Assembly (NCBI GenBank): GCA_032718475.1
Contig: JAUCBJ010005335.1
Coordinates: 2,112 to 66,111, forward strand
Source of the DNA: Nemertoderma westbladi
Taxonomy: Eukaryota; Animalia; Xenacoelomorpha
DNA length: 64,000 nt
Reading direction: 5' to 3'
Part shown: piece by piece, positions 1,102 to 44,020 of the stretch
Numbering within the stretch: the first letter of the stretch is position 1
Layout of the letters: each line of letters begins with the position of its first letter
The notes under the pieces: model-generated
What the model was told of the DNA's origin: nothing
Seen by the model: the letters and a program-made list of their open reading frames with translations, nothing else
Database searches by the model: none
Program-made: the position numbers and the translations under genes

Positions 1102-2257
1102 TGTAAAAGCTTTTGCGTCATTAACCGGTTATTTTCCCTTAAAGTACTCTGTAGTTGGTTTACCAGGCATAAAAAGGCCGTGTCCTTGCTGTACTGGTGT
1201 TTTAGAGGACATAAAAGTCATTTCCTCTGTATTTGTACTTTAGAGGACATAATCCGCAATCTCGTGACGCGATAAGCTAGATACTCTTGAAAACAGTGTC
1301 GCTACCATGACGACGGCTAACAGCTGATATTGCCACGTCGACATTTCTTTGTTTCTTTGTTCTCTCGTTGTTCGGTTGACCAATCAGAGCGTTTTTTGTC
1401 TCTGTGTTGGAGGTGGATACAGAACTCAGTAGTTCAGTGTTATGTTTTTGCCCAGAGCCTAAGAACACCGGCTTTTGGCACCTCCGTGTTTCAGTCTTTA
1501 GTCTTACATTAGTAGGCTTAATTATAGAACGTATATCTGTTATCTAACCAAACGAGCTACTTACTTACTCACTCACTATCCATAAATTACTAATATTACT
1601 GCTTTTGCTGTCGGTTATTCATTATATTTGTTGATGAAATATTATATCGGAATACTGATCAATAGTCAGATACCCCACCTTCTTGATATACTAAAGGTTA
1701 GAGAGACCGGTTACAGATAAACGATTGCGACCTATGTTAAGTGGTTTGAAGTGAATCTAATGCTATTTCATATGCCCGACATAAATTATATGTTGCTCTC
1801 TTTATACGTGACCAAATTTAGTGAAGGTCGGCAGATTAGTGTGCAGTATTGTGCAGCATTGTGTATGAGTGTAACTGATAACAAAGCATCTCCTAAAGAA
1901 TGCGCCATATACGTGAATCTATAGCCTTTTCGTTGTGTCTAGTTTAAGCCATAACTCTGTTTACATATTTAGAGCGCCACGTCCTAAAAGGAACTGTTAA
2001 TATTTCCCGAAAGTGAATAATATTTGTCAGAGATTATATATTACGATCAGTCGAATAATACAGTAGGCTTACACCATCAATCATTAAGCTCCGAACTCAG
2101 TCTCCCGGGTATATCCAACGGGTGAATGATTGCGCATAGACTGGCTTCGGCTAATGTAGTGTATCAAATACTCGTCATAGGCTAAAGACTATCTATCATC
2201 CAAAAGACATTCTAATTTTGGCAGGTTAAACTGTCAAAGGTCTTAAAAGCACAAACA
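1102..2257 (+). repeat. 5' LTR of BEL copy A
   Basis: Direct repeat of 18516-19671; only two mismatches noticed by eye. Confidence 0.96.
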
Positions 2258-2268
2258 ATAACAGATAT
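2258..2268 (+). promoter_or_regulatory. Non-tRNA primer-binding site candidate ATAACAGATAT (self-priming type)
   Basis: Abuts the LTR end, lacks TGG, and is the exact reverse complement of LTR 1533-1543 (ATATCTGTTAT). Confidence 0.7.
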
Positions 2269-2602
2269 TTGGTTCTGATTGTGGTGTAGGCAATAAATAT
2301 AGTTTAATATTGTTTTTGGTAAAAACAATAACAGATATTGCTTCTGGATTGCGGTGTAAGCAATCTAGTCGAAAGTACCGGTCGACCGGAAACCTGTAGG
2401 CCTGACTGCCTGATCATCCGAACCGGTACTTCCAGCAGGTACAGCAGTATTATTCGATTTGATTATTATATGCCGGTAGGTCTTAATAATTAATCGGGGA
2501 TGCCTGGTTTTTATTGGGATTTTACTTAGGCCTATTTCTGTCAGTTTTATTTATTTGTAGGCCAGTATTGAGCAGAAGGCGTGTAAGCCTGCTCAGATTG
2601 TA

Positions 2603-3175
2603 CAGATAATTTGTAGGCTTGACTGTTGGCTAACTGTTGATTAGGTCTGAATGGATTGCAGTGCATGTAGAGTGTATGTCCGATAAAGAACGGTTAGGAA
2701 GTAGGGGCAGCCATAGCTGTAAGGTAAACCCCCATCTAAAGAATAAGTCGTACTACTGGGTTAGAACGCATACTACTTAACCATTTCGGAGTCTGCATGT
2801 CCTGTGGTTTATTTAGGCTTGATAGTAGTCTGCCATCGTTTGGTCTGTACTTTGTTTGTGTAGTCTGTACGGGTAGCGTATAATTTTATTTAGATAATTT
2901 GTAGGCTGGATAGTTGTCTGGCTGCTGTTGGGTTTGAGGAAATTTCGGTGTGTTTAAAGCATCTGTCCGATAAAGAACGGTTAGGAAGTAGGGGCAGCCA
3001 TAGCTGTAAGGTAAACCCCCATCTAAAGAATAAGTCTTACTACTGGGTTAGAACGCATACTACTTAACCATTTCGGAGTCTGCATATACCGTAGTTTGTT
3101 TAGGCTTCATAGTAGTCTGTCAGTATTTGGTCTGCATTTTGTTTGAGTAGTTTGTACGCGTAGCGTAATATTTAT
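2603..3175 (+). repeat. Tandem duplication (~288-bp unit x2) in the BEL 5' leader
   Basis: The block AGATAATTTGTAGGCT...GTCCGATAAAGAACGGTTAGGAAGTAGGGGCAGCC...GTAGCGTA occurs twice. A homologous duplication is in copy B (~57750-58320). Confidence 0.85.
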
Positions 3176-4516
3176 TATTCAGAGTTTATGCTATTATTCG
3201 CAACATTCATATCCCCAAGTTTATTCCTACAGTAATTGTGTTTGTTATACATACCGTTATAGTTAAACTAACCCCGGTACTACATCAGGGCTGCTCGGCG
3301 TAGGTAAAGACTGGTGATTTTGTGCACCGGTCACTCCAGCAGATGCCGTGGTTCTTTTAGCTGTTCAAGTATTTTTAACTACTAATTATTTGTTGTACAA
3401 GTACTTGTACCTAATTTAGGGTTTAGTGTACAGTACTTTCCGAAGGTGATTAGTGTGTAGGCAGTATATTTGTGTTGTAAAGTGGTTAATAGGCACGTTG
3501 GTTCTGGTAGACCGCGGTAATTAATCTCTAGGTAGGGACACTCCGTGATACATAACGTAGTACCTATAGCGATATGGTTATAGGTCGTCAGGCGGTGGTA
3601 TTTTCCTATCTGGACAGCGCAGTATATTTACTACTACTTATTATTTTCAAATACCGTAGTAACCTGTCCGTTGTAATAACCAGATATTCTAACCCTTTGT
3701 TAGGCTGGTTAGTAGACTTCTTGTAAAATTACCCTAAAATTCGTATTTGTGTATTTGTAATTAAATTTTTGTGTTTATTTAGAGATTGTAATCTCAACCC
3801 GAATTGTACGTAATTTGTAGTATTAAGTAACTTAGGTAAATTAGAATTATTTGTTTTAGTGTCTAACAAGTAGCACTCCACTGAGAGCGCACAGCTTATG
3901 TGTAGTGACTCCCCCAGAAATAATAACATTTATTTCAAACATTAACAAAACCCATTAAACGGGTATATATATATTATAAATCAACTCAAACGATTTATAA
4001 ATAGTAGGCCTGCCATACAACAATTAGGTCTCAATATCAGTTGGACTACTGCTTAAATAACGGCAATAAAGTAAGTTAAAGTAACCAAGTAACCCTTAAA
4101 ATTCAGAAATTCAATTATTCTAAAATAATTGACATACCGGTATTTACAATAGGCTTATTATATTTATTTCTATAAATTTTAGGTTGAAATCATACTGGTA
4201 TTCTGTAATTAATTCTAGTCTGTAATTATACTTATATATATACATTATAAGTGTAAACTGCATACCGGTATCCACGATAGGCCTATTATATATTTATATA
4301 TATTTGTGCTAAAATTACCTACCGGTATTCTGTGATAAACTAGTCTGTAATAATACTTATATATACTATAAGCATACCGGTATACTAATATATTATATAT
4401 CACGCTACACTGAGTAGCAGTATCGGTAATTAATTACTAGGCTAGCAGTTAACACTGAATTACTAGACTTGCTTAGACTGTAATATAGCAGTAGACATTC
4501 AACTGTGTAAACAAAC

Positions 4517-7500
4517 ATGTCTGATACTAAGCGGAACCTGTCAGACAGTTTATTAGATGTAACTATCTGCGACTCAGATAGAGGTGTAGAACCGTCTAGT
4601 TCTAAGTTCAGTTCACCTCCCACTGTGAGGAAGGTCATCCCTCCATTAGTATTAACAGAACCTAGGCTGGTCCAACATCGTAGGTCTATCATAGGCACTC
4701 GAGCTCAGGTTAAGCGGGACCAAGAAGCAGCGGAACAGCAACAACCCGCAAGCCAAGAACTTATTTCTGAGCGGCCCGACAGCTCCAGTAGTGAAGATAC
4801 TGTAGAGCTGACACCCGAGCGCGGAGCAAGGATGACGGATGCGGTTTATTCGGATCCCCTTCTCATCCTTCCTGCAGCCGTACTCACTAGGTTATTGATC
4901 GCGGTGGAAGAACACCAGATCGATTGGGCGAGAAGTAAGCGATCAACTAAAGATAGTTATGAGGGATACACAAGGGAATAACTGAATTCTATGGTCGAGT
5001 CGCAATGGAACTTCCCCGGACCCAGACTCCCGTTTGATTTATCAGAAGCTGCCTGGGAAGACATACACCGGATGGGAGTAGCCAAGGAAACCATCGATCC
5101 AGCTGTGTGGAAGAGGTCCGCAGCCGGATACGCACAGGGATTCTTCAGCTCTATGGAGCGAGTAAAAGAACAACTGTTTCAACAACCTCAAGGACCTCAA
5201 GAGCAGGGACAACTGCTTTATCAAGTTAGAGAAAGAATTCTGCGAATCAGGCTAATATTATCAGCCTTTGAAGAGGCTTCTAAAAGAAGACAAGACACGT
5301 CGTTGCAAGTTGCCGTAAAGACTTGGTTTCAACGGGTGAGTCGCCAGGTTCAAGGAACAGCTCAGTGGAAAGCTCAGCTGGAGGAGCGCTCAACCCATGG
5401 AGAATCAACAGACGCTACTTTTTCCCAAGTGGAAAGTGAAGCGACGGCAGAGAAACCGCATAAGAGGGATGCCATTGACATCTATCTGTCAGACTATCAG
5501 CGTTTTTTGGGAGATGAAGAGTTGAGGAGAAGGCTAGATGGACTTAGCCCTAATAGTGAAGGAGCACAGCGTGTGCTTGACGCCATCGACGTGGATAGGT
5601 TAGCAGCGAACCAAGCTAAATTCGATGAACAACTCCGCATCGCTAGAGACCAAGAAGAAAGGGTGAAGAAAAAACGCATAGAAGACAGAAAGAAAGCAGC
5701 AGTAGCAGCTGCAGAAGCCGAAAGAGAAGCGGCAGCGGCAGAGGCAGAAGCGGAAAGAAAAGCGGCAGCGGCAGAGGCAGAAGCGGAAAGGAAAGCAGCC
5801 GAAATGGAAAGAAAAGCGGCAAGAGCAGCGGCAGAAGCGGAGCGGATAGCAGCTGAAGAGATTGCCCAATTAGAATTGGAAAATATTCAGGAGAATCAAG
5901 ACTGCATAAATAAACAGTTAACAGCTAGTAATATGCAGATGATGAATCGATCTACTCCCAAAAGACAGGGATATACATCATCTGAGGAAGGCGATACCAC
6001 CGATACTGAAGGCAAAGGAAATAGATCTCACCTAAGCAGACGCAAAAGAACATTCCACCGTCAGAAATTGCCTGATTTGCCTCCAGCTGTTAGAAGGCAA
6101 CTAAATAACACCAACTTAGGTAGTACAGAACCCACAGACCAAATAATTACAATAGAGAGACTCCCTACTATAGTAGATGAGCCTGAAATAATTAGGCCTG
6201 TTCCCGAAGCCACCCTTTCGGTCGTAGAGACACCTGTACTCCCTGAACCTACCTCTCAATTCCCTTTGCACAGCACTAAGCTACCTGTGCCCAGCAGAAC
6301 AGCCCATGAGACAGTTCATGCCCTGGACTCCGAGCGAAATATTCATGATTTGTCGCCCGTTGTCCCTCGTCCGCCCGCTACAACGTTGGCGAATCCCGCT
6401 TCGGTGGTCGAATGGGTGGATGAGAGACGACGGGGGATGGATCTCCTGCTCGGACAGATGCAGGAGACCGTTCAGCAATTCAAGGGCACAGTAAGGGAAA
6501 GTAGATTAGAGTTGCAAGAAGTGCAGCAAAGTATCGCGCTAGAACGCGATAAATTAGTAAATACACAAAAGGGTATACCAACACCCCCCGTAACAATGTG
6601 TCAACCTGTTAGGTCTGAAGTATCTCATGGCAAGGTGTGGAGCCTACACGCATCTATACTGCTAGCGAAGTAGAAACTCCTATAGTGAACCCTATTAAGG
6701 GTAATTATAGACCTGTTGATAATGATATTCCCTATAGACCGGATCATAATCCGATAAATTTATATACCGATAACTCGATATTAAATAACACGATGGCCCA
6801 AGAAAGTTTTACGCGTCAAATGGCTAGAACCGAAGCCCGGCAAGCGGTAAAGGTGGGAGAGATCGTCAAGTTCAATGGAGATGAGATGAAATGGTTACCT
6901 TTTAATGAATATTACAAAGATAACATACAGAACTCTGTGCTATCTAATGGAGAGAAACTTAGATTCCTCATCGAGTGCTTGGAAGGATCTCCCAAGTTAA
7001 TGGCGTTAAAGTTTATTGGACATCCAGACGGATTAAGACAAGTTTGGGATACACTAAACATCAGGTATGGTAATAGGAATAACATAGCTGGGTATTTGTA
7101 TGCAAAGTTGGTAGCGCCCCGAAAGTTTATTAGCAGCGGAATTATAGAGTTTTCCGATGAGATTCAGGAGATCTGCAGACAATTAGATTGGCTAGGTAAG
7201 TCTCATGAGTATCAGAATGCTATGGTTATTAGAGCAGTGGCTTCTACTTTACCGAAGGGTGGAGTAGGTACACGCTGGGATAAGAAAGTGTTATATATGA
7301 TGGAACAACAACGACGAGACCCTACCATGGCTGATCTCATGTCATTCCTAGATGGAGAAGTGAAATTACAGCTCCTGAAACTGTCCAGAGAGAAGACACC
7401 GGAAAACAAGGTAAGTGAAAAACCCGTCGCTAGGAGAAAGGTAACACCAGTGTGTTATACAGATGATGGCGAAAGCCAGACTTCTCAAGGAGAAGATAGC

Positions 7501-10500
7501 GGGAAAGACACTGACAGATCTTATTACGTAAATAAAATGCCTAAAGATCAGGTAAGTAAATTCAAGTCTCGAACAAATGACAGGAGAGAACAGGTAAGAA
7601 AAACTCCTCCTACGTCTCCCAAGAGAATTCAGGTGAGAAAGCCCGAAGAAAAGACAAGTGTACACAATGTTACTCAGAGTAAGGTAAGTAACATCAAACC
7701 GAAATGTGCACTATGTGATGGGACCCATCGCTTAAATATGTGTGATGAATTTCTAAAGAAATCATTAACTGAGAGACGTGAAGTCATGTGGGACAAGCGG
7801 TTGTGTTATAATTGCCTCAGACAAGGACACCAACGGCGAACCTGTTACTCTGACACAAGATGTGCCAAGTGCGGTGCGAAACATCATATCTTGTTGCACA
7901 CTGAATTCGAGCGAAATAGTCCGAGTCAGGTAAGTGATTCCGAACTACATGTCCAATTCAGTGATGTGAACGACACTGATCAATCTGAGATGGAAGGATT
8001 CTATACAGACGAGTTCTCCGACGAAAACGAATCCTGTTACACGATAAACACCACAGTGTATCGAGCACTCATTTATGAAAAAGATACAGACATTGACCTC
8101 GCTCTAACTACTTCTGATCGACAACCATCTTGGAAAGCGCCAACTTCCAATGTAGGGATTAGAGAATTTCCTGTGGTACAGGTAAGGGTCCACGGACCAA
8201 AAAGGAGTTATGTAGTGAACGCCCTCCTTGACTCCGGTAGTACAGGAACATTCATCGACAAAGAGCTAGCCGAGGACATATTCGCTGGACAACCCAAGTT
8301 CCGAACTAAGCTAAACATGTCAGGAATTATGCAAGTTTGGAAATCCACAGTAACAGCGGATTATATGTAGGTGCGTTGTCCACCCCCCAGGACGAACTAG
8401 GAGAACATAGCATAAGGTCAGTGAAAATGGTGGCTATAAAGAACTTCGCTACTACTCAAGCAGACCTTTATAATTGGGACGAGGATGAGAGCATCCAACA
8501 TCTTAAGATACCTCGATTCCAGACAGATTATCCTGGAGTGCAAATACTCATCGGTCAAAATGCGCATGAAGCGCTCGAGACATTGGAGAAACGACCTGCT
8601 CAACCGCAACCTCTACAAGTTTATGCGGGAAGAACTAGAGTAGGTTGGTACTTTACTGGCCCTTCCCGTAGAACTCTCATGGAAAGATTACCGAAAGATC
8701 AGGTATATCAAGCGCGAGAATGGGAAGTTGAGAACAGTGAGTTCGACGATCCAACTGAGGGAACTCCATACTCCTCAGACAACGACGATATACATCAACT
8801 CTTTGATGAGGAGAATGCCATCGATCTCCTTAAGGAAAGCGAGACTTGGCAAAATCAAGTGAACTTATGTCAACTCCTTCTTCCATCCGAGCGAGACGAC
8901 TATAACGACGAGCTTAATGACGTTATTGAACGTTATAATGCCAAGACTCGGGATGAACACGCCGTGAGATTCTTTACTCAAGAGGTCGTAGAGCCCAACT
9001 CCTACGATAAGGCCCTATCGGTGGAGGAAGAAAGAGCCAAGCAGATCCAAGCGACAACTACTCGTTTTCTTAAAGATCAAGGTAGATATGAGATCGGTCT
9101 TCCTTTCCGAAAGCGAGAACCAAAGTTCATTAACAACAGACCTTTGGCAGAGAAAAGAATTGCTCAACTACATCGACGCCTTACGGCAAATTCTTCAGCT
9201 AAAGAAATGTATAAAACACAGTTGAAGAAGTTTATTAGCAAGGGATATGCGGAGCTAGTACCGGAAGAAACCCCTATAACTGAGAGAACGTATTACTTAA
9301 CTCACCATTACGTTCCCAAACCCGGTAAACCCCATGAAGTACGAGTGGTGTTTGACGGTTCCGCCCTTTATATGGGCCAATCTCTTAATTCTGAATTGTT
9401 ACCCGGACCCAACTTACTCTAATCCTTGTTGGGAATACTATTAAGATTAAGACAATACTCCATTGCTTTCGCCTCAGATATAGAAGGCATGTTCTTACAA
9501 GTCAAAGCGCTGGATAGGGATCGAGATAGCCTACGATTTTTGTGGTGGCCTGAAGGAGACCTCAATAAGAAACCGGTGGAGTACTGGATGACCATCCAAG
9601 CTTTTGGGATAATCTCGAGCCCTTCAAACGCCTGTTCCGTGGTACGCACCACTGCGGATGACAACCGAGACGCCTTCTCTAAAGAAGTGATCGACAATAT
9701 CAAACGAGACATCTACATGGACGATAATCTAAAGTCCCTTCCATCAGTCGAAGAAGCCATTGAGGTCGCTAAAGGAACGGTAGAGTGCTTAAAAAGAGGT
9801 GGATTTCGATTAACTAAATTCACTAGCAACTCCCGTGAGTTTCTGGAGTCGATCCCGGTAGAAGATCGAGGAGCAAAAGACCTAGATCTAATAAAGGATG
9901 ATCTCCCAGAAACTAAGACCCTTGGTTTGAAATGGGACACAGAAAGAGATATCCTGTTTTTCCAACTAAAACAGCGAGATAATCCAGTTCGGACTAAACG
10001 GATATGTTTGAGTATCCTGAGCACTTATTTCGATCCATTGGGATTTATTAGCCCAGTTATATTGATTGCTCGGAGTTTAGTACAACAAATGTGGCTTGAA
10101 AACCACTCATGGGACGATCCACTTAAGGGAGAATTATTAAAGAAGTGGATGAAATGGGAAGATTCTCTACCAGCCATCGAAAACTTCATAATTTCCTGTT
10201 CATATTTTGGTCATGTTCTCCCTACGTATTCATATCAACTCCATGTGTTTGGAGACGCCAGCGATATGGGAATAGGTATAGTAGCTTACCTAAGGGTGGA
10301 AACTCCGGACGGAATCAAAGTTGCCTTGGTTACCTCTAAGGCATTGATAAACAACAAGTTGAAAGTTCCTCGAGCGAAGTTAAAAGCGGCTCTATACGCT
10401 ACAGCCATCGGCCGGAATGTAACAGAACAGATCGACTATCCCCTGGAGAAAACTGTCTATTGGACCGACGCTTTACTCGTGTTGGAGTATATAACCAATG

Positions 10501-12553
10501 AAGTCTGTCAGTTCAGCGTCTTCGTTACCAACAGAGTAGCTATTATACTCAGTCGCACGACGATGGATCAATGGAGACATTGCCCCGGAACGATTAATCC
10601 AGCGGACATCGCTTCCAGGGGAGCAACTCCACAAGAACTGGTAGATACTCCAGACTGGTTAGGTGGACCCGACTTCCTCTACAAAGAAGAAGAAGAATGG
10701 CCTCCTCATCTTACTACAGCAGAAATTAGACAGGCCAAGGGAGCGGAGAAAGTCAAACCTAAAACTCAGGCGAGTAAATCGAAGTTATTCAAACCCACAG
10801 TGGATCTGTCTGTACTACATACTTCCGGAGACGACGCTTTGGATCAGAAACCCACAGCCACAAATAAACCCATTGTGGAAATCCGTGATAAGGATTGGAA
10901 ATCTGGCATACCAGACGTCTCGCAAGGACTCTCACCCCTTCTGCAGAGAGCGATACATCACTACAGTTCCTGGAATCGGCTCTGTAAGGCCGTTACATAT
11001 TTAAAGAGATGTTTTCACCATCACTACTCTGGGATGAAAACAAAGGGTGATACCGCTCCAATCACATCAGTGCAGGTCCATGTTATTAAAGACCTTCCTA
11101 AGTATAAGGTACCCGACAAGTTTCTGAAGGAGAAGATCAGTTATCAGGAGCATGAAGAAACCAACAAACAGATGCTGAGACTCTTACAATGCTATGAAGA
11201 TTCCGATAAGTATTTCCTGTTGTTGAAAAATCCACAGATGCGCTTAAGGGATCGTTTCTCTAGCACAATGATAGATGGGTTGATACGTGTTGGAGGAAGG
11301 TTAACGAATGCCCCATTATCCTTTGATACTAAGTTCCCCATACTCATTAGAAATCTTGAAATACAAGTCAAGATGATTGTAGATGTTCACAGCAAACTTT
11401 ATCATGCTGGTAGAGAACGAGTTCTTAGCGAAATTCGAACTCGCTATTATTTTTATAAACCCCGTAGAGCTCTGAACCAAGTTCTTAGGAACTGTATACC
11501 CTGTAGGAAAGCATTCAGTAGTATTATGAACCACCCTTTACTAATACCGGTATGGATTTATTTGGCCCTATTGAAGTATATCGTGCTAGGACTATAGTCA
11601 AGAGATGGTGTGTAATCTTTGTTTGTATGACTTGTAGAGCCATCCATCTCGATATGGTGAACGATTTATCTACCAACAGCTTTCTATTAAGCTTACGACG
11701 ACAGATCGCTCGCTTTGGCACTAGTAACACGATGAGATCTGATAAGGGAACCAACTTCATTGGTGCCAACAATGAAATCAAAGCTTACGTCAAAGATTGG
11801 AACCAAAGACAGGTGGACGACCAACTACGAGTAACAGCGTCTAGTTGGACCTTCAACGCCGCCGACGCCCCTTGGTGGGGAGGAAGTTGGGAGAGATTAA
11901 TAAGAAGCGTGAAGACAGCATTTCATTTTATAGTGCCTTGCCGCGCTTATCTCACCGACGAACTTTTGCGGACGTTAATGGAAGAAATCGCCGCCTATCT
12001 CAACGAGAGACCGCTTATGCCAGTCTCATCGAGTCCCGATTCCCTGGAAGCGCTAACACCCGCGCACTTCCTACTGAAGAAACCTGTAGCCATGCTCCCA
12101 CAATCGGAAATCACAGACGGAGACGAATACTGCCGACAAACTTGGCAACTCATGCAGTTGTTATCCCGTCGTTTCGCTGACCATTTCGAAAAACATTATC
12201 TGCCCACGCTACAACTTCGAACTAAGTGGTTTGCGCAGCAAGAAAACGTCAGCGCTGGAGACATGGTGCTTATTGTCGATGTGGATCTTCCACGTAAGCG
12301 GTGGCAGACAGGTCGTATAATCGAGACGCACATCTCAGATGACGGTTTGGTGCGATCGGTAGAACTCGTCGTCATGCGACGTAACTTCAAGAAACCGGGA
12401 ATTGTCTTCGAGACGCAGCAGCTCAATCGCCCGGTGGGACGTTTATGTTTACTGGAAAGAGACAGAGAACTCTCCGGAAACTATGGGAGACAAGATACTC
12501 TTCCCACGACCACCTCCCTAATCCAACAAACATCTAGGGACTCCCCAACTTAA
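4517..12553 (+). pseudogene. gag-pol: BEL copy A gag-pol polyprotein, disrupted
   Basis: BEL gag (KFNGD...KLRFLIECLEG), triple knuckle (CALCDGTH..C, CYNCLRQGH..C, CAKCGAKH..H), protease LLDSGST, RT YMDD, RNase H LHVFGDAS/WTDA/NPAD, integrase GMDLFGP/SDKGTNF/GGSWERL. Stops at 4979 and 9420; frameshifts near 6630, 8345 and 11521 relative to copy B. Confidence 0.95.
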
Positions 12554-13089
12554 CAACGGCTGGAGTGGGTGTGTGACCATATTACTTTATATTTGTATTT
12601 GTTTTATTTTTATATTTATGTATGTAGTATTATGTAATTTTATTTTAATCGTTTTATTTAATTTTATTTAGTAACATGTTATTTTAGTGATCATTTAGTA
12701 GATTAGTGCAATATATTAGTGTTTATTACGTACGTAATTACTTAAAATATATATTTAGTGCGACGGCGAGAAATAATTATTTTTCTCTTTCCTTACTGTC
12801 CGTATCATATTATAAATACGTGACTACAGTAAGATGAAATATCCGTACTTATTAAAGTACAATAAAGCCACTACTATATTCAAGTATTATTGGTAGGCAG
12901 AGTATTAGGAATGCAAAGTTCAGATCCTCGTGTCTCGGCTAAACCAAGCTCTGGGTAGACCTTGGAAACGACTTGCCTCTTCACACTGACATTGCTTCGT
13001 GCGATATTGCTCTCATACCGTATATTAAATAATACATATAGTAGCGTGATGTCCCTTTAACAGTAGCGTATAACGCAAAATAAATCTGT

Positions 13090-13420
13090 TGAACCCTTTG
13101 ACCATCTGCAATTCTAGTCGATTAAGATATCGCGGCACCCACCGATATACTTGAAAGACAAAATTCTAGAATCAGTGGTTAACGTTCTGGAATAAACTGG
13201 TGCCCATCCTAAATATTAATTATTAATATTTACAAAATCTGTCAAATTTTAGATCCTTTAACATTCTAGTCGATTAAGATATCGTAGCATTTACCGATAC
13301 TCTTAAAAAGACAAATTCATAGAATCAAGGATCCCAGTCCCCAGATATGCTCTGGAATCAAATTGTGTCTATTTAACATTAAATAATAAAATTTACGGGA
13401 ATAAATTTAAATTCAGATAT
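13090..13420 (+). repeat. ~150-bp tandem duplication in the spacer between pol and the extra ORF
   Basis: ATTCTAGTCGATTAAGATATCG...AAAGACAAA..T..AGAATCA at ~13111 and ~13263; also present in copy B (~47570-47850). Confidence 0.75.
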
Positions 13421-14183
13421 TTCAATGAATTTAATAAATTGTCATTTTGTACAATTTATAACATTCCCAAAATTCCATTAATTAATAGATCATGGGAGCG
13501 GAGATTCACTCTATTAAGTGTATTTGTGTGCGAGAATCTCCAATGTATAGTCAATAGCCGATAAAATTCATAGAATCATGTATAAAGGGGATATTGACCA
13601 TTAAAGAATTACTATTAAATAGCATCCCAGATCTGTATGCATGAGAATTACCCTAATTCTACCGCTAGCTTTCCATAATGTCACCATGGCAACAACCACG
13701 CTAGAATTAGAAGTGAGTTAAAAGAACAATAGAAGGCATGCCCCATTGAATAGCATAGGGAATAAATAGCGCACTGCTAGTATCCAAGGATACATAATAA
13801 ATACAGTGACATTCTGGAAGGTACTGACTAACGGACAAATGGCCCGAATGTGTGCAGTTTGTTGCAGTTGTGTTGAATTTGTGCGTTTGTAGGTGAATGT
13901 TACTACTAAGGTGTGTTTACAGTAGCGAGTCGCAATTGTGAAAGTAACCCTAACTCTCCAAGAAGAACCTGCAGTACATCTAAGCCTTTGGGACGGACAG
14001 TTAAGTGACTTGTGCCGGTTATCGTTGTCGTTGTGTAGCTACATCGTTGGCGAAAGCACAGCGACGACGGTACATCAGCGCTGAGGATCTTACACTGTCC
14101 GGGGGCAAAAGAGGGGTAGGCAGCGACGCCCGCTAGCCTAATATATATAAACTCATTATAATATTGATAAACTCATAGCAGAT

Positions 14184-17100
14184 ATGACTGAGTTGATAGA
14201 AGATGATCTTGGCATCAGGGAGCGATATACTCTACCTTTACAAGCGTTTGTCGATAGCTTGATACGCGGCGATGCTGGTCCAACTACTACGGAGGATGAT
14301 GGTCGTTATATCGAACCGCTAATGTCCCCGGAGCAACTTACGCGTGAATTGGACTATAGAAAGTTCACCGCTCGCTATACGCATCGTAATGGTACGTATA
14401 TGGACTTCTTAACCACTGGCCATCCTATCGATTTACACGACACGGACGATGTGGATACCGAAAGGGAAATGGTTTTATTTAAATATCATACCCAGCGGAA
14501 TCGGAACGATAAGCCAAGAATAGAACACGAGAACTCTATTCGAAACAGACTCGAAAGAGAAGACGTTGAAGAGCCGGATAAACGTAACGACTTCAACGAT
14601 TATCTGGAATTCTTGAGAGAAACATACCTCAATATTGCCAGTCAACAGAATCTCGAAACTCGATATCCTCAAGGTATATATCATAATCCTATGATAGAAC
14701 TCAAACGACTCTATTTCACTATGATGTATCTTACCGCCGATCGACCGCTACCCGTTGTCCCGGATAGCTTCGAACAGATGGAGGAATATTGTAAAACTGG
14801 AGAACGATCACCCGCGTTTCCTCTGCAAGACATGCGTCTTTGGTATTACTGCGACGAATGCCCTAGACCCAATCAGCAAACGGAAAGACATAAACATCCG
14901 CGGAGACGTTGCGCTAAACACAGTTTTACACGATATACTTACGGGAGTTTCGAGCGAAACCTGTTCGACGTGTCCCCTGCGGTCGCTCGACTCAAGCGAT
15001 CCTTGAACAAACCGATGATCAGAGTTCCGGAATACTCGGTCAGACCTCCGCATTCCTCAGTTAGACCTCAAACTCTTGACCCTAATAGTATCACGGATCC
15101 TCCCGAACTGTACTCACTGTTCAAAGATCTAGTGTTACCCGAACAGTTGATCGGTGGCACTCCGGTAGTAGGCTCACGAGACATTCGCCAACCCTACCTA
15201 GCTGGATTGGGACGTGGTCATCTAATATCACCATTTAACCCATACAACCGTCCCGGCTTCACCTCTATCCAACCCGTTACGGAAGTCGAAGAGAGCGTCG
15301 TACGAAATGCATTAGACGCTATTTGGCAGAAAATCGGAAAGGGAACGTACGATTGTTTGGAGAAGCGTAAATTGCAGCAACAAGTCCAAGCGGTGAAGGA
15401 ATTAGCTTTACCCCAGTTCGATAGAGAAATACAAAATCTCGAGGAGGACATCGAACGTGGAAGAACCTACTCTTTACAAGAGTTTCTAGATGAGCGTCTA
15501 CAACAACAAGCGGAGGAGAATCAGCTCGAGGAGAGACATATAGAACTGGATGAGAGAGAAGAAGCGGCTTTAGCTCAACCCGAAGTGCAAATCCTTATGA
15601 CGGATCTCTACTCTAAAACCATTCTTCATCCCTCGATGGCTCCCCATTTCGGAGACAAACTTTTTGCGACGGCACAACCCCAACCGGTTGATATCAACCT
15701 AAGATCTCGCGATCTTATCGCCGACGCTCCTCTGTTGCAGCGTCCGCCCATCGAACCCGCTCGTGTCGATGGTATACTCGTTGAACCTCCGGACAATAGA
15801 GCAGATCTTGTCCGTCGCATGGTACACGATGTAAACATACGCGCTAGACCTTTACCGGACTCGTTTTATGGGATCAAAGATCACCCTTATTACGTCAATC
15901 TAAAACAATATTACATGGTAAAACCGGAAGATCCTACACATAGTCTGAAGTTTCTACCGTTAATAAATCCTCTCGATATTGTCGAACTCGAACAACTGCA
16001 GAAACATCTGGATCAGTTAGTTAAAGTAAACTCGTTTTGAAAACCATATAATGTTTCCAGGATAGAGAAAGAAACAATACCTCCGTATAATCTTGATGGA
16101 TTCATCAAAACTCGTTTAGTGCACTGGAATCTTGATGTGTTATTCGAGGAGGAAAGAATACAACAATATGGAGATGTGGAAACATATACCACACAATATT
16201 TAAAGTATAAAGACCTGCCTAATGCTAGCGAATGTGCTACCTTGTGGCATCCTGTGGGAATGACACTCGAAAACGCCACTAAAGAATAGAACGAAACTCT
16301 TAACGTTATCGAGATGTATGGAGTTGTCACTTATGATAACAAAGGTAGCGTTCCGGTTGGAGAACTTGGAACTACGCGGATGATACATATACGAGGACTC
16401 GCTGGTTCTACCCACGTATTTACTCGAGCGTGTTCCGACGTTATTGATTATTCTTTTGAAACTCTTACTGAGATACAAAAGAAACTCCGACATGGACAAT
16501 TTGAACTCGCGCAGCGTTACGTCACCGACACCGAGCGCAAGCCGGCCATGGGTATCGATGGATCGATGTTACCCCAACCCGTGCTCGAGATGCTGTTTAA
16601 CGAAGGAATCCTTAAAATCGGCTCAGCTGTTTATGGAGACCTACAGAACGACTTTCGGAATATGGAGAACATTCCATACCCCTTCGTTGATACTCAGCTG
16701 ATTGCTCCTTGGGCAGAAGGCCGAGGTTTCTTCCGCACTACGTATGCCAATACACCCAACGGAATTACCAAAGTACAACGAACCTCCATTGGACATCTTG
16801 CCTTTCAAGAATACGGATGGAATTTCAAGGTTGGAAATCCTATAAATTACCAACAAGTATACGGAGATCATTATTCTCGTTTATACTTTGATGGACCATT
16901 GACCGCACCTGGCGCCGTGTATAGCTTTATGAGTGTTCCACTTCGTCCCTCCTTAGCCATATACACGATCTTTGAAAACGCAGCACTTGCCGGTTGGCTA
17001 GCCGATGTGTGCAGTCGTACCATACGCGCCCATCCCTTAATACTTGGAACCAAACTCACCAAGTTAGATGAACACAATAAATTCATACGCTTTGAATGTT

Positions 17101-18437
17101 TCAGGCGCTTTCTGACTCCGTTCCGTAACGTTGATAGTCAGTTCAAGGACTGCGCTCTGACCAAACTCAGCCTGAGAGACTCGGCGGCGGAGAAGCTAAA
17201 CAGCGCGGGATTTGCCCTTTTTCAGGACGTTTGTATACAGAACTTGCACTCATCTGTTATACAAAGACCCCGAATACCCACGGGTTATTCTGTCGTCGAA
17301 GTTCAGACAGTGGGTCCGCTTGCGGAGACAGCCGCACCTACCTCAGCTATGCAATTGGAAGACGAACCAATATGCTTAGAAGCTGAAGCGATTCAGCCTA
17401 CAGCGCCCCGGAGCAGCGATAACGACTACGTCTTAGAGTGGTATCAAGGTCCATAATGTCTCACCGCATACGATTATCGACACGCTAACTATGTTTCTCG
17501 AAAACGTTGTCGATTATGCGCATCGAGAGACCATTTCACTCCTATGGACTCAGACGTACCCTGTTCCTATTTCCACGAACAACCAATGATGGAGATATAT
17601 TGTGCGTATTGCAGACTTAATAACTCTCATATTTTTGCAGTCTGCCCCCAATTTATGACTCAATGCCACCACTGTCAACTTAAAGGACATGCCAGTTATA
17701 ATTGCCCCTTTAATCACGATTTAGAGAGCGTAGATGAAATGATTACCCTTCGCTACATCCGAGCTTGGGAAGCTAACGCGGATTTACACTGTGAGTCCCG
17801 TCATCGATACTACCCTGGACGCTCTTACGAGGGAGTTTACGCGTTCCATCCTTATTTATTAGCGTCTGTGGAACAAAAAACACGCATACCGAGTTACGAG
17901 CTAATGAAGCGTGTTGGTGAGTGTATTTCCACTAAATTTGTTAGAAGATACCTTAGAAACGTCAATCCTAACGATATTACTTCATACCATTTGATCAATT
18001 ATATCCGTCAAGACCCTGAGTATGGCGATTTATTTATCAACTCGCACCCTGAGTTACAGGAAGTATCTCGACGGCCCTACGAATATCGAGCCCGAGAACG
18101 CGAGCTGGAAAGAACTATTAAACCAAGGAAGTTTCTCACCACTCACGGTCCGCCTACCGCCATTGCCCAGACAACCCGTCAAGGACCCGTAGGAGCTGCT
18201 GTCCTGAGGCGCGCCCTAAAGGCTGTTAGACCTTGCTCCACGGAAGTTGATATCGATCAACCAGGTACCTCGACCGGCGGATACACCGATCGCAATCCGA
18301 AACCTTCTGATGCAATTGTATTGCACCCTTCACCCAGGAGTTACAGCCCTCCTAGTAAAGTGGCTCGCCCCAAAGAGAAAAGGACTCTTACTAGCCTCAA
18401 AAAACTGCGTAAACGCCGTCCACGTAAGAAAGACTAA
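14184..18437 (+). pseudogene. Extra (non-env) ORF of BEL copy A, ~1417 codons: Cys/His motif, coiled coil, DEDDy exonuclease-like domain, CCHC knuckles, basic tail
   Basis: ORFs 14184, 16314 and 17544 share one frame, broken only by single stops (TGA 16038, TAG 16287, TAA 17454). The last stop is CAG in copy B. N- and C-terminal parts are conserved in copy B. Confidence 0.88.
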
Positions 18438-18503
18438 CTGTTTAGAGTATTTTTATATTTTAGAAACTGTGATTTGTTGTATTTTATAGACTTAAATCCC
18501 ATT

Positions 18504-18515
18504 TTCTGGGAGCGG
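18504..18515 (+). promoter_or_regulatory. Polypurine tract (..TGGGAGCGG) of copy A
   Basis: Immediately before the TGT of the 3' LTR; identical in copy B (45241-45252, minus). Confidence 0.8.
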
Positions 18516-19671
18516 TGTAAAAGCTTTTGCGTAATTAACCGGTTATTTTCCCTTAAAGTACTCTGTAGTTGGTTTACCAGGCATAAAAAGGCCGTGTCCT
18601 TGCTGTACTGGTGTTTTAGAGGACATAAAAGTCATTTCCTCTGTATTTGTACTTTAGAGGACATAATCCGCAATCTCGTGACGCGATAAGCTAGATACTC
18701 TTGAAAACAGTGTCGCTACCATGACGACGGCTAACAGCTGATATTGCCACGTCGACATTTCTTTGTTTCTTTGTTCTCTCGTTGTTCGGTTGACCAATCA
18801 GAGCGTTTTTTGTCTCTGTGTTGGAGGTGGATACAGAACTCAGTAGTTCAGTGTTATGTTTTTGCCCAGAGCCTAAGAACACCGGCTTTTGGCACCTCCG
18901 TGTTTCAGTCTTTAGTCTTACATTAGTAGGCTTAATTATAGAACGTATATCTGTTATCTAACCAAACGAGCTACTTACTTACTCACTCACTATCCATAAA
19001 TTACTAATATTACTGCTTTTGCTGTCGGTTATTCATTATATTTGTTGATGAAATATTATATCGGAATACTGATCAATAGTCAGATACCCCACCTTCTTGA
19101 TATACTAAAGGTTAGAGAGACCGGTTACAGATAAACGATTGCGACCTATGTTAAGTGGTTTGAAGTGAATCTAATGCTATTTCATATGCCCGACATAAAT
19201 TATATGTTGCTCTCTTTATACGTGACCAAATTTAGTGAAGGTCGGCAGATTAGTGTGCAGTATTGTGCAGCATTGTGTATGAGTGTAACTGATAACAAAG
19301 CATCTCCTAAAGAATGCGCCATATACGTGAATCTATAGCCTTTTCGTTGTGTCTAGTTTAAGCCATAACTCTGTTTACATATTTAGAGCGCCACGTCCTA
19401 AAAGGAACTGTTAATATTTCCCGAAAGTGAATAATATTTGTCAGAGATTATATATTACGATCAGTCGAATAATACAGTAGGCTTACACCATCAATCATTA
19501 AGCTCCGAACTCAGTCTCCCGGGTATATCCAACGGGTGAATGATTGCGCATAGACTGGCTTCGGCTAATGTAGTGTATCAAATACTCGTCATAGGCTAAA
19601 GACTATCTATCATCCAAAAGACATTCTAATTTTGGCAGGTTAAACTGTCAAAGGTCTTAAAAGCGCAAACA
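18516..19671 (+). repeat. 3' LTR of BEL copy A
   Basis: Direct repeat of 1102-2257, followed by TSD GGTCC. Confidence 0.96.
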
Positions 19672-19676
19672 GGTCC

Positions 19677-20893
19677 AGCTTAACAAGCAACCACGTGACG
19701 AACAAGTCTCGGCATTTTTTGGCTACTGCACACCTCTGCTTTTGTCTAAGATGGAACACGTGGTACACGTTCCACAAGACACTGACCTCTGTTTAGAAGA
19801 ATTTTTGGACATGTTCGAAACATATCTACGAGGTAAACAGAATGTCTCCTTGGATCGGTTGGAGCTTACCTTATGCCGACAACAAGACGGCGAGAGTTTC
19901 GATGACTTCTATACCCATCTATGCGAATCTGCTGCTACAGCGGGGTTACGTTCCATGGGGCACGATGAGTGGATGTCAACCTTAATAACTGTCGGCATAC
20001 AAAATGAAGAAATTCGACAAGATTTATTGGGTAAATTTCCGGCATTGAACCACGATGAAACCGTAAAATTTTGCCGCTGTGAAGAAGCTGCAAGAATACA
20101 TCGAGTCAAGGTGAAAAATGTACTGGCTGGGTCGAGTAATAAATCTTCAATGTTGACAGCTGCTTCATCCACAAACCAAACTACTGGTAAGAAAAAATAT
20201 AAGGGCCGATATCGATCGAAGAGCAGGAATAGGAACCCGTCAAGTTCACGAGGCCCTCAAGCGGATTCCTGCACTAAATGTGGTTACGATAAACACTATG
20301 GTGGCAAGGAGTGCCCGGCAAAGGGAAAAACGTGCTCATACTGTCACAAATCCCATCACTTTGCACAAGTGTGTCGAAATAAATCGAATTTCGGCAGTAA
20401 TAACCGGAACCGTAGCAGTTCTCCAAAACCCTCATCCGCCATCCACATCGCCATGGTTAGGCATTCCGCTACTCCATACGTCTCAGTAACGTTATTCGAC
20501 CATGTAACAAAGAAGTCAGTTGGAGACCAATCTGCAATTCCTGATACCGGTTCCCAGTGTACCATCGCCGGTATAGAGCTGCTCCATAACCAGGGAATTG
20601 ACATCGCCAACATTAATCCACCCAGCGAGGAGAAACTGGTGAGTGTAAATGGGAAAGTATTAAAACAGTTGGGTTGTATTACATTTTGTATAGTTCTAGA
20701 AGGTAGACAGGTTATTGAGGAAGTAAAAATATGTCAAGATGTTGAATTTATGTATCTGTCCCTCAATACATGCAAAAAACTAGGTATTGTTCCTTGGAGT
20801 TTTCCAAAACCCCCTCCATTATGCAGTGAAATGAGAACTGCGACTCACCTATGCTCTGGTTGTCAATCTAACTGTGTACACCCAAATTTATAA
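19677..20893 (+). pseudogene. gag: G1 gag C-terminal part and aspartic protease
   Basis: RQQDGESFDDFY gag motif, Mag-type knuckles CTKCGYDKH...CPAKGKTCSYCHKSHHFAQVC, and protease motif PDTGSQC. Confidence 0.88.
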
Positions 20894-20899
20894 AGGGAT

Positions 20900-23372
20900 C
20901 TCAACCTATTTTTGTACAAACCTCCCACACAAAGTGGATAAATAACTTACCTAAAAATCCTTCCGACAATGAAATAACAAATATTCGCGAGGAGTTAATT
21001 AAACATTATACAACGGTTTTTGATTCAAATATTGAACTGTGGAGCATGGTAGGCTCTACTATTGGTGATCCCATGAGGATCGAGTTAAAAGCGGATTTTA
21101 AACCCTTTGCAGTTCATGCAGCTCGATCTATTCCCTTTGCAAGGAGGGAGCAAGTGAAGAAGGAGCTGGATGACATGGTTGCTGGTGGTATAATTGAACC
21201 AGTCGGTGACCGCCCCACCGAGTGGTGCCATCCACTCGTTGTGGCAAATAAACCTAACGGAGGGATTCGAATGTGTGTGGATCTCACAAACCTTAATAGA
21301 CAGGTAAAGAGGGTAATCCACCCAACAAATCCACCTCTTAATGTTGTAGCTGACATTTCCCCAACATCCAAATATTTTACCGTCTTAGATGCCAAAAAAG
21401 GATATTGGCAAGTCGATCTACACCCAGAAGCTAGAGACCTGACCTGTTTTATAACGCCCTGGGGACGGTTTATTTTTCTCCGTGCACCTATGGGTTATAT
21501 TAATACCGGAGATTCTTATAATTTAAGAAATGATTTGGTATTGTCAGATATAGAAAATATTCACAGACTGGTGGATGACATTTTGGTTGAGGATAATGAT
21601 TTTAAGATACATACTGACAGAATATGTACTGTTCTAGAACGTTGTGCCAAACACAACATAACATTAAATGTGCAGAAATTCAAATTTGCTAAAAGTGAAG
21701 TCAAATTTGCTGGATACATAGTCACTGATTGTGGAATTAAGGCTGACCCCAATAAAGTGGATGCAATATCACAGTTTCCAACACCCACTAATCGATCTGA
21801 ATTGAGATCATTTATGGGACTGGTCCAGCAATTGGCCCCCTTTTCGAATGAAATCAGTAGTGCTGCTAGTCCTCTCCGTGATATAATGAAGATGAGGAAT
21901 GATTTTATTTGGACTGAAAATCATAAAACTGCATTTAATGAGGTTAAAAAAGCCCTTGCAGCCCCCCCCTATTTTAACAACATTCAACCCAAAATCAGAG
22001 ATAGTATTAGAAACTGATGCGTCACGTACCAAAGGTCTAGGATTTGCAAAAACTAAACTATTCAGACAGTTTTAGATTACTTCAATGCGGATCTAGATTC
22101 CTCACCGAAGCGGAAACTCGATATGCTACTATTGAGTTAGAAGCCCTCGCAATCTTGTGGGCGACTCGTAAATGCAGAATGTATTTGTCTGGTTTACCCA
22201 ATTACATAGTAGTCACGGATCACCGCCCCCTCTTGCCGATTTTTAATACTCATACTCTTGATATGGTGGAAAATGTCCGAATTCAGAATTTTAAAATGAA
22301 ACTTAGCGAATATAATTTCAATTTAATATGGCGAAAAGGGAAGGACCACTGTATCGCCGATGCTCTTTCCCGTGCCCCCGTTTCAGATCCTGACATGGAG
22401 GACGAAAATGAGGGGATAATAATGAAGAATATTTCTGCCATTGCTATACAAGCTGCAGTTACAGCCTTAGATGACTCAGAATTTAATCGATCGCCGCCAT
22501 ATGTTGATCCTATTCTAGAGAAAATTAACAACGTTGCCACAACTGATGAGGATTATCAGGCTCTAATTAATGCTGTAAAATCTAACTTCACACTCCCATT
22601 TACTAATAACTCGTTTGTACAACAGCTGAAGGGTACATGGAATGAATTGTCTATAGACGATAACCTTGTCATATTTGGCCGACGATTAATTATTCCTAAA
22701 ACACTCCGTAAAGAGGTCATTGACCGTTTACATGACTCCCATCAAGGTATTGAGCGGATGAAGCGACGATCACGTGAATCAGTTTACTGGCCTGGAATCA
22801 ACAGTGACCTCACTAATAGAGTCAGACAATGTTCTAAATGTCAAGAACGGTTGCCTAGCAACCATAAAGAAACATACTTTGCTGATCCCCCACCATCTAG
22901 AATTTTTGAATCGGTTTCTTCAGACCTCTTCTACTATGGTGGAAAATGTTATCTTACATACGTGGATAGACTCTCAGGGTTCCCATTCATAGCCAGATGG
23001 GCATCCGACCCATCGGCCTCCCAGGTTATTGCACAGGTCCGTCAATATTTTGTGCAAACCGGAGTACCCGTTCGCATGCGTTCGGACGGGGGGCCCCAAT
23101 ACCAGTCCAAAGAATTTCGCCATTTTCTTTGTCGCTGGGGCGTTCGTTGGGAGCCATCCACACCATACTACCCCCAATCGAATGGACATGCTGAGGTTAA
23201 TGTGCGGATTTTGAAAAACCTCGTGGCCAAAGCCGATGACGGGCGTATAGACACTGAACCGTTTTTACGTGGCCTTCTAGAACTTCGGAATTCTCCAAGA
23301 ATAGATGGCTGTTCACCTTCCCAAATAGTTTACGGCCACCCGCTCCGTTCACAGGTTCCAGCACACTACAGA
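20900..23372 (+). pseudogene. pol: G1 pol (RT, RNase H, integrase), frameshifted
   Basis: RT: RMCVDL, LDAKKGYWQ, RAPMG, LVDD. RNase H: YATIELEAL, VTDHRPL, IADALSR. Integrase: HDSHQG...CSKC, SSDLF, SDGGPQY, SNGHAE. Frame breaks near 20890 and 21970-22044. Confidence 0.92.
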
Positions 23373-23374
23373 TT

Positions 23375-23830
23375 AAATATTCTGTTGTTGTGATAGACAT
23401 CGTGCATGATTTTTGATACCTCCAATTTATATATACTATCAATTGGGAGAATGTTTAAAGTCTTATACAGTGTTTTGGAGGATGCTTGCCGGTGGCTATA
23501 TGTAATTGCCCTTAAAATTTTATTTAACTCTTATCCGTAGTGGTTTTATCACATTATTGGATGAATAGATCCAAACTGCTAAACTGTATAGGATATATGG
23601 GTGAATAAGAGCAAAGTACAACATGTGCATAATATGTTCTGAAAAAACATAACGAAGCTTATAGAACAACCCAACAAATTTTGATATCTTCTTATTAATG
23701 TATTCGAATGCGGTTTCCAAAATAATTTACTGTCAATAATCAATCCAAGATATTTTGTTTCTGAAGTTTCTTTAACTACTGTATTATTCACTATACTGTA
23801 TACTGTGGGATCCACATTGCACATTGCACA
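23375..23830 (-). mobile_element. LINE fragment (post-RT region, CR1/L2/Jockey-like)
   Basis: ETKYLGLIIDSKLFWKPH followed, frameshifted, by LYKLRYVF...LYFALIHPYILY...W. Confidence 0.75.
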
Positions 23831-31435: not shown

Positions 31436-31485
31436 TCGCATTTAAGATTTGAGGCACTCCTAAAGTCTCGAGTTTTAGGTTTGAG

Positions 31486-32138
31486 CCACAGACTATGCCT
31501 CACTGAGGCTTAGAATATGCCTCACACTGAGGTACTGATGCACAGACTAAACCTCACTGAGGCTCAGACTATGCCTCACTGAGGCACTGAGGCACAGACT
31601 ATGCCTCACTGAGGCACAGACTATGCCTCACTGAGGCACAGGCTATGCCTCACTGAGGCACAGACAATGCCTCACTGAGGCACAGACTATGCCTCACTGA
31701 GGCACTGAGGCGCAGTCTATGCCTCACTTAGGCATTGAGGCACAGACTATGCCTCACTGAGGCGCAGACTATGCCTCACTGAGGCACTGAGGCGCAGACT
31801 ATGCCTCACTGAGGCACTGAGGCACAGAATATGCCTCACTGAGGCACTGAGGCATAGACTATGCCTCACTGAGGCACTGATGCACAGACTAGGCCTCACT
31901 GAGGCACAGGCTAGGCCTCACTGAGGCACAGGCTATGCCTCACTGAGGCACAGACTATGCCTCACTGAGGCACAGACTATGCCTCACTGAGGCACAGACT
32001 ATACCTCACTGAGGCACTGAGGCGCAGTCTATGCCTCACTGAGGCACTGAGGCATAGACTATGCCTCACTGAGGCACTGATGCACAGACTATACCTCACT
32101 GAGGCTCAGACTATGCCTCACTGAGGCACTGAGGCATA
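31486..32138. repeat. 22/30-bp palindromic minisatellite, left part
   Basis: Unit GCACAGACTATGCCTCACTGAG with an optional extra GCACTGAG. Confidence 0.95.
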
Positions 32139-32267
32139 TATTGCAAACGTACTGCAGTACTGCAATGCAAAATATCACTATGCTATTCGCTTCCGACTGA
32201 CTGTAATGTAATATATATATAATAATATAACAATTCAAATTTCCCGCTTATAGTAATATTTCCAACA
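32139..32267 (-). repeat. 3' LTR of G2
   Basis: Identical by eye to 36720-36848; PPT AGTGGTGGAGGGA (32268-32280, minus) is adjacent. Confidence 0.93.
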
Positions 32268-32332
32268 TCCCTCCACCACTTATAAAGGAAAAAACCCTAA
32301 CAATGTTTATATTAAATTGTTCTATTCCTTGT

Positions 32333-36672: not shown

Positions 36673-36705
36673 TGTACCCTAGATTAGCTCGCGGCTTCGA
36701 AGTTT

Positions 36706-36718
36706 ATCCTCGTCGCCA
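36706..36718 (-). promoter_or_regulatory. PBS TGGCGACGAGGAT (tRNA-Ser GCU-like)
   Basis: 1 nt from the 5' LTR; complementary to the typical ...ATCCTCGTCGCCA 3' end of tRNA-Ser(GCU). Confidence 0.85.
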
Positions 36719-36719
36719 A

Positions 36720-36848
36720 TATTGCAAACGTACTGCAGTACTGCAATGCAAAATATCACTATGCTATTCGCTTCCGACTGACTGTAATGTAATATATATA
36801 TAATAATATAACAATTCAAATTTCCCGCTTATAGTAATATTTCCAACA
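36720..36848 (-). repeat. 5' LTR of G2
   Basis: TGTTGG...GCAATA on the minus strand; direct repeat of 32139-32267. Confidence 0.93.
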
Positions 36849-37289
36849 GCATACACTATGCCTCACTGAGGCACAGACTATGCCTCACTGAGGCACAGAC
36901 TATGCCTCACTGAGGCACTGAGGCATAGACTATGCCTCACTGAGGCACTGATGCACAGACTATACCTCACTGAGGCTCAGACTATGCCTCACTTAGGCAT
37001 TGAGGCACAGACTATGCCTCACTGAGGCACAGACTATGGCTCACTGAGGCACTGAGGCGCTGTCTATGCCTCACTGAGTCACTGAGGCATAGACTATGCC
37101 TCACTGAGGCACTGAGGCACAGACGACTATGCCTCACTGAGACACATACTACGCCTCACTGAGGCACTGAGGCACAGACTATGCCTCACTGAGGCACTGA
37201 GGCATACACTATGCCTCACTGAGGCATTGAGGCACAGAATATGCCTCACTGAGGCATAGACAATGCCTCAGTAAGGCACTGAGGCTCAG
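36849..37289. repeat. 22/30-bp palindromic minisatellite, right part
   Basis: Same unit as 31486-32138, resuming in register after the TSD. Confidence 0.95.
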
Positions 37290-43502: not shown

Positions 43503-44020
43503 GCTTTTATATTAGAAACACTGTAATATAACAATTATTTTTATAATTACTACTTCTACTATCAGCATGCTGCATTGCAACTGCATTATCATGTACTACA
43601 TATATATTAATAATGCTGTGCCGGCTTGTAAACAAAATTGCGCTGTCACATCTCCCTAACACCCATGACATTTGCTAGATCATCCGCATCTTCAAGGCCA
43701 GTGTTTAGATACGCCTCTAAGAGGCGTCCCAAGAAAGGCATGAGTTGTCCACCATGTTTATTTATTCGCCAAAGCACAATATTATGCACTGGCTGGTACT
43801 CACGGCGAAACCATCGTCCTGCAAAGCGGAGGCGGTTCAGGTCAAGTGTCAAGCTAAGGAAGACTAATGGATGTTTCCTCCAATGTTGTATAGAGTCTGA
43901 TTGGAGATGTGTTCATTATACTTGACACAATGAACGCGGCACATTATTCTTTTGAAAGTGCCATCAAGAGATTTGGAATCCTCTGCAGTTAGAAGCCAGC
44001 ACAGACTCCCATATACGAGT
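43503..44020. repeat. Left copy of the 518-bp duplication flanking BEL copy B (contains the 3' end of an RTE-like LINE, minus)
   Basis: Matches 59914-60431 with two mismatches seen; encodes RLRFAGRWFRREYQPVHNIVLW. Confidence 0.93.

Follow-up and report, generated by a model that had tools for sequence, protein, structure and literature searches.

The ICTV profile of the Belpaoviridae describes an 18-nt primer-binding site (PBS) for tRNA-Arg or tRNA-Gly and a genome of 4.2–10 kb, and it calls the replication of this family "poorly understood" (PMC8742986). The window, i.e., the entire 64-kb stretch of DNA that was analyzed, contains two copies of one BEL/Pao family, A and B, in opposite orientations. 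Neither copy has TGG in the first 8 nt beside its 5′ LTR, as the original prediction had stated, and the locus raises the question of which RNA primes the minus-strand DNA synthesis of these elements. Judged by this absence of TGG, A and B do not carry the tRNA-Arg or tRNA-Gly site of the profile, a trait that describes the exemplars but does not define the family phylogenetically.

Elements A and B and their primer-binding sites

Both copies carry PF03564, PF05380, PF17921, and PF18701 (DUF1759, Peptidase_A17, the integrase zinc finger, and DUF5641), which are the Gag/Pol domains specific to BEL/Pao elements, in PR-RT-RH-IN order (Table 1). Their internal regions are 84–89% identical. The LTR hallmarks of the group, namely TG..CA ends, a TSD, and a polypurine tract, are complete in A, where the TSD GGTCC occupies 1097–1101 and 19672–19676, and 2 of 1156 nt distinguish the two LTRs. 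In place of a 5-nt TSD, B is flanked by a 519-nt direct repeat (43502–44020 and 59913–60431, 99.6% identity); its LTRs diverge more than those of A, with a 21-nt indel and a differing 3′ end. B probably arose by recombination of two insertions, or else its two parts were joined during assembly. Extra reading frames of 629, 388, and 326 aa lie 3′ of pol in A (14151–18437, + strand), and B likewise has one or more (45319–46362, − strand). The last extra frame holds two CCHC-like knuckles. The search with these frames returned neither a Pfam match nor a homologue among longer proteins. Because of the long extra frames, A is far above the size range of the family.

The RT sequences of the relatives are 39–47% identical to those of A and B, with 40–47% for the best ones. 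All the best ones carry PF05380, and corals, echinoderms, bivalves, and fish are the sources of those with names. In a quick tree, which contained no named Sinbad or Suzu references, B lies on a long branch among coral, echinoderm, and other elements, and B and the relatives fetched by RT alignment are separate from the insect elements (SH-aLRT 99). The window also holds other mobile DNA. A interrupts the gag frame of one Gypsy element (552–1101 and 19672–23393). A further Gypsy element (32138–36848, − strand), whose identical 130-nt LTRs end in AT instead of CA and whose primer site is of the TGG type, sits in a 22/30-nt satellite (31482–37293). A 63-nt tandem repeat of at least 12 copies (27926–28918), open in several frames, lies within another mobile element. 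ARAGORN found no tRNA genes in the window.

Table 1. Positions of the features of A and B and of a neighboring control site
Feature	Position	Strand	Remarks
Element A	1102–19671	+	18.6 kb BEL/Pao retrotransposon
A 5′ LTR	1102–2257	+	1156 nt, TG..CA ends
CCAAT-box-like block	1380–1391	+	common to A and B; putative promoter role
Conserved block before the 11-mer	1507–1532	+	donor-like GTAGG at 1512; upstream arm of the possible second helix at 1526–1530
Possible second helix, A	1526–1530 with 2272–2276	+	5 nt; downstream arm to 2277
A self-primer core (predicted)	1533–1543	+	LTR positions 432–442; reverse complement of the PBS
Divergent stretch	1544–1679	+	possibly intronic
Conserved AG/GT site	1682–1703 (1696/1697)	+	candidate splice acceptor or donor
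A PBS (predicted)	2258–2268	+	flush with the LTR end (offset 0), no TGG
A gag-pol	4982–12553	+	five reading-frame pieces: DUF1759, protease, RT, Peptidase_A17, integrase, DUF5641
A polypurine tract	18508–18515	+	abuts the 3′ LTR
A 3′ LTR	18516–19671	+	second copy of the primer core at 18947–18957
Element B	59913–44021	−	15.9 kb BEL/Pao retrotransposon
B 5′ LTR	58681–59913	−	1233 nt
B self-primer core (predicted)	59415–59405	−	LTR positions 499–509
B PBS (predicted)	58680–58670	−	offset 0, no TGG
B gag-pol	48389–56449	−	pieces of 1887 aa and 798 aa, one stop between
B 3′ LTR	44021–45240	−	primer core copy at 44753–44763
Neighboring Gypsy PBS	36707–36718	−	control, outside the system; TGG-type, self-pairing only 4 nt

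The 11 nt that follow the 5′ LTR of A are the exact reverse complement of a site within this LTR, and the corresponding sites of B are complementary at 11 of 11 positions. Both pairings had been reported in the original prediction and were reproduced by recomputation. The further claim that the pairing is exactly 11 bp holds for the core, since contiguous Watson-Crick pairing ends at 11 in both elements, and a possible second helix lies outside it. The PBS of A is also duplicated, with a second copy at 2328–2338 (+ strand) that had not been noted before. It belongs to a short tandem duplication in the leader of A (2251–2345), which repeats the LTR end, the PBS, and a donor-like motif; one contig of run X3 has a variant second copy of this duplication. 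In the most conserved LTR block (94% between A and B), AACTGTTA at 1992–2001 is complementary to 8 nt of the PBS of B and to 6 nt of that of A, making it a possible alternative pairing partner by complementarity.

None of 200 dinucleotide shuffles of either LTR reached 11 at offset 0, where the Markov expectation is 0.0013 and 0.0012 per LTR. In a looser search, with offsets 0–4 and splice junctions allowed, 11 was reached in 2/100 and 3/100 shuffles. Since A and B are kin, their pairings count as one event, not two. The statement that both partners had changed together concerns a real compensated change, between position 4 of the LTR site, which is T in A and A in B, and position 8 of the PBS, which is A in A and T in B. 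It is a single pair, which by chance would arise in an estimated 1 in 33 cases, and is weak evidence alone. The site of B is a near-palindrome, with 10/11 same-sense identity to its LTR site (8/11 in A). The A variant breaks this palindrome while the complementarity persists, which is informative. Among the 40 of 214 and 40 of 74 variants listed from the contigs over this region, none falls inside either 11-mer, and these variants thus add no third covarying pair.

Own-LTR pairing in distant BEL/Pao families

Relatives fetched by RT alignment comprise 83 loci, 79 from the best 80 of 528 confirmed metagenome stretches and 4 from genome contigs, which form 48 families at 85% RT identity. Twelve families were tested, in each of which the 5′ LTR end was set from two LTR copies, independently of any pairing. 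L074 and the tandem L022/L023, with unclear ends, same-family duplicates, and families without usable ends were left out. Pairing was scored at offsets 0–4, a range set after the first results had been seen, and either contiguously or across a GT..AG junction. In all 12 families the primer site pairs with its own LTR over 10–15 nt, with different letters each time, and 0–2 of 100 shuffles per family reached the observed value. Swapped pairings between the LTR of one family and the PBS of another average 6.8 nt and reach 10 in 6/156 combinations; none of 100,000 permutations matched the diagonal. Two controls are imperfect: L009 scored 12 in the reversed-only control, against 14 observed, and L052 scored 14 in the control with wrong-strand introns, against 11 observed.

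The partner is found only across a GT..AG junction in 10 of the 12 families, and it is contiguous in L052 and L056, as in A and B. Canonical introns of 71–186 nt, with junctions that match the PBS, are predicted in the LTRs of L004, L009, L012, L020, L033, L048, L061, L071, and L077. Among the nine junction families displayed, the donor is GTAAG in seven, and the acceptors are pyrimidine-rich YAG; L010 is a decayed copy. The predicted primers of the intron-bearing relatives mostly end in AAC or similar. TGG is missing from the first 8 nt in 11/12 families, and L061 has it at offset 1. The paired part in the relatives contains only 3–9 nt from the first exon. AATAAA, where present, lies downstream of the primer (9–10 of 11; two without), which places the primer of the relatives within R and makes it available at the 5′ end. 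A TSD is present in only one of eight relatives with both flanks, as one would expect of contigs collapsed from short reads.

A blind junction search over the 45 loci in which the LTR ends could not be set gave noisy results, with controls reaching 9–11, and was not counted. Plausible extra cases are L029 and L074 from this search and L022 by eye. No exact match to the LTR 24-mer occurs in the viral and metagenome contigs, and the RT alignments returned no relative among the viral contigs. L080–L083 are BEL/Pao contigs in bacterial MAGs, probably reflecting eukaryotic contamination of the bins.

Judging from these sequence relations, A and B likely prime minus-strand DNA synthesis with a piece of their own RNA, not with a tRNA. 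The claim that the family self-primes thereby gains support, mostly from the agreement of 12/12 distant families rather than from the lone A/B swap. Since B is on a long branch, we infer rather than observe that the result for the relatives carries over to A and B.

Transcript start, leader folding, and a proposed mechanism

The original description of a conserved block that runs into the 11-mer, with divergence after it, is borne out by the identity between A and B, which is 96% over 1507–1532, 91% in the 11-mer, and 56% over 1544–1679. Just past 1547, the contig depth drops about 100-fold in run X1 and about 60-fold in run X3 (two DNA runs, summed), indicating that the shared sequence ends with the primer core. 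A TATA-like word, TTATAG/A, precedes 1533 by only 10 nt; were it functional, transcription would start downstream of the 11-mer. Donor- or acceptor-like sites conserved in the LTRs of A and B occur at 1512, 1696/1697, ~1972, 2063, and ~2228, and introns in this long LTR, if they exist, could shorten the loop between primer and PBS. On paper, a spliced primer can also be drawn for A and B, with an intron at 1539–1696 that yields 10 nt at offset 1; its donor is weak, the AG/GT site taken as its acceptor might just as well serve as a donor, and the splice scores of A and B at offset 0 are not above those of shuffles (55/200 and 48/200). Run X4, which is RNA only by guess, contains no splice joint in its coverage, from which 1537–1652 and the PBS are absent. 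Donor-like GTA(A/G)GC motifs lie about 18–28 nt past the PBS in both elements.

The core duplexes are weak, with energies of −10.5 and −10.1 kcal/mol for A and B, respectively. The loop between primer and PBS spans 714–724 nt in A and B, versus 87–216 nt in the relatives. Upon folding of the 766–966-nt leader, the helix was predicted in 0/8 trials for A and 2/8 for B, and its mean pair probability is 0.01–0.02 for both, versus 0.82–0.99 in 9/11 relatives. The arm of the possible second helix measures 5 nt in A and 6 nt in the 3′ LTR of B, where its letters differ; cross pairs give 2–4 nt. Between the 12 nt that precede the core and the 12 nt that follow the PBS, paired runs of at least 4 were found in 8/12 cases versus 42/132 swaps (permutation p = 0.003, in a run-length test devised after the data had been seen). 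An energy test of this helix gave p = 0.23 for A, 0.48 for B, and a marginal Fisher value of 0.04 over the 12. The initiator motif CA[GT]T is present in 8/12 (p = 0.001; the motif was chosen after the data had been seen); YYANWYY, the insect Inr, and TATAWA showed no enrichment in this test. The Rfam search returned one match, at chance level.

It is doubtful that A and B follow the strict geometry of Tf1, in which the transcript would start at 1533 and the primer would be its first 11 nt. The second helix would require about 9 nt upstream of 1533, which suggests a start upstream of this position, and the short first-exon part of the paired segment in the relatives likewise points to an earlier start.

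In LTR replication, the start position of the minus strand is set by the LTR end. In A, the same CA terminates the 3′ LTR, directly ahead of the TSD, so that priming has to start no more than a few nt from 2257, the position of the paired 11-mer. The sole partner found for this site is the element's own LTR. In the mechanism that we propose, the transcript would start at or upstream of ~1524, and LTR 1533–1543 would anneal to 2258–2268, aided by the second helix of 5–6 bp and probably also by the nucleocapsid domain of Gag. A cut 3′ of 1543, made by the element's RNase H if the analogy with Tf1 applies, would free a 3′-OH facing the terminal CA of the LTR. The RT would then copy U5 and R back to 1544 and jump to the 3′ LTR, by which the primer sequence would be restored. 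The primer of most relatives is predicted to be assembled by splicing of the LTR intron, while that of A and B would be ready-made. For the group as a whole, we lean slightly toward a scenario in which a large aquatic-animal branch of BEL/Pao dropped tRNA priming in favor of an internal piece of leader RNA within a two-helix structure. In most of its lineages, the primer would be built only when the host splices out an LTR intron. The lineage of A and B, which is deep and of giant size (18.6 kb), would have an unsplit primer, either ancestrally or after intron loss.

Alternative explanations and comparison with known systems

The element could also supply the primer by a route other than cis cleavage of the 5′ end; the source would then be the copy in the 3′ LTR (18947–18957), a short separate LTR transcript, or the second packaged RNA. 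The 11-mer is present in both LTRs, the cis loop is very long, and folding does not favor the helix; furthermore, A has no AATAAA to fix its R region, and the second helix of B is better with its 3′ LTR (6 nt) than with its 5′ LTR (3 nt). The relatives speak against such a route, as their cis helix folds well and their AATAAA places the primer in R at the 5′ end. We regard it as an unlikely variant of own-RNA priming and count it within that reading. The prospect of a host RNA, such as a tRNA half or another small RNA, priming at the PBS, with the LTR 11-mer as a structural partner or remnant, is quite improbable. The PBS varies between A and B and among the 12 families, each time tracking its own LTR (in 10 via the splice junction), which is not what a fixed host RNA predicts. 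The only TGG near the LTR end of A, at 2270, lies 12 nt away and is missing in B and in the second PBS copy of A. Host priming would nevertheless agree with the tRNA priming that the ICTV profile gives for the family (PMC8742986), with the half-tRNA primers without TGG of copia lineages in the available text of PMC6317226, and with the TGG of L061.

The 11-mers might also serve as protein-binding sites in DNA or RNA, or form a packaging or translation hairpin, with no role in priming. Both contain TAAC.G, which we take to be a Myb-like core, the PBS of B is nearly palindromic, and the LTR site lies within a promoter-like conserved block. This role is improbable: what the relatives have in common is the pairing and not the letters, and the LTR end shows no other primer site. 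The complementarity could also be a chance product of an A+T-rich LTR, dating from one ancestral event and passed on to A and B, which would be compatible with the 2–3 per 100 shuffles that reach 11 in the loosest search. With an expectation of 0.001 at offset 0 and the same pattern in 12/12 relatives, such an origin is highly improbable.

Own-RNA priming thus remains the preferred reading. If it is true, a third LTR superfamily has evolved or retained self-priming, which would be the standard mode in a widespread branch and would free its elements from the host tRNA supply and from control by tRNA fragments. Where the primer spans an intron, replication would be tied to host splicing. It would also explain the failure of tRNA-based PBS searches on such elements, and the pairing gives a sequence rule for locating R, the primer, and the cut site.

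Full-text searches of the literature other than subscription journals, Repbase entries, and supplements returned no report of BEL/Pao self-priming. The terms PBS and tRNA were looked up in the available text of the Sinbad paper (PMC554778) and of a survey of BEL/Pao elements (PMC3118150) and occur in neither, and the accessible parts of PMC13524379 and PMC8220671 contain nothing on BEL/Pao priming. The feature in A and B is real, and its likely mechanism is of a known kind in a BEL/Pao setting for which no report was found.

Tf1 RNA anneals to the PBS by its first 11 bases and is cleaved by RNase H between positions 11 and 12, according to the available text of PMC7175516; the excerpts of PMC5341516 and PMC4600332 likewise describe Tf1 self-priming. 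The available portion of PMC6317226 describes Tf1/sushi elements as self-primed and gives self-priming as a prediction for Tcn1 and the copia TAR lineage, and the corresponding portion of PMC3601003 names only chromoviruses. Like Tf1/Tf2 (Schizosaccharomyces pombe), Tj1, and the Tf1/sushi and Tcn1 groups, A and B have a PBS that adjoins the 5′ LTR, pairs with 11 nt of their own LTR, and is not a tRNA site. They differ from Tf1 in their BEL/Pao domains, in place of a Ty3/gypsy (chromovirus) polymerase, in the loop of ~720 nt, and in a primer that is probably not the first 11 nt. The primer of the relatives spans a predicted splice junction in 10/12 families, for which the available Tf1 texts hold no counterpart. 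A and B resemble the ICTV Belpaoviridae in DUF1759, Peptidase_A17, DUF5641, the PR-RT-RH-IN order, the TG..CA LTRs, and the 5-nt TSD (in A), and depart from them in the absence of a TGG-type site, in their lengths of 18.6 kb and 15.9 kb, and in the extra 3′ frames without known homologues. For the TAR lineage of Ty1/copia (Houba, Osr-1), self-priming was also deduced from sequence, as the available text of PMC6317226 indicates; those are plant copia elements, and BEL/Pao would be the third superfamily with this mode of priming.
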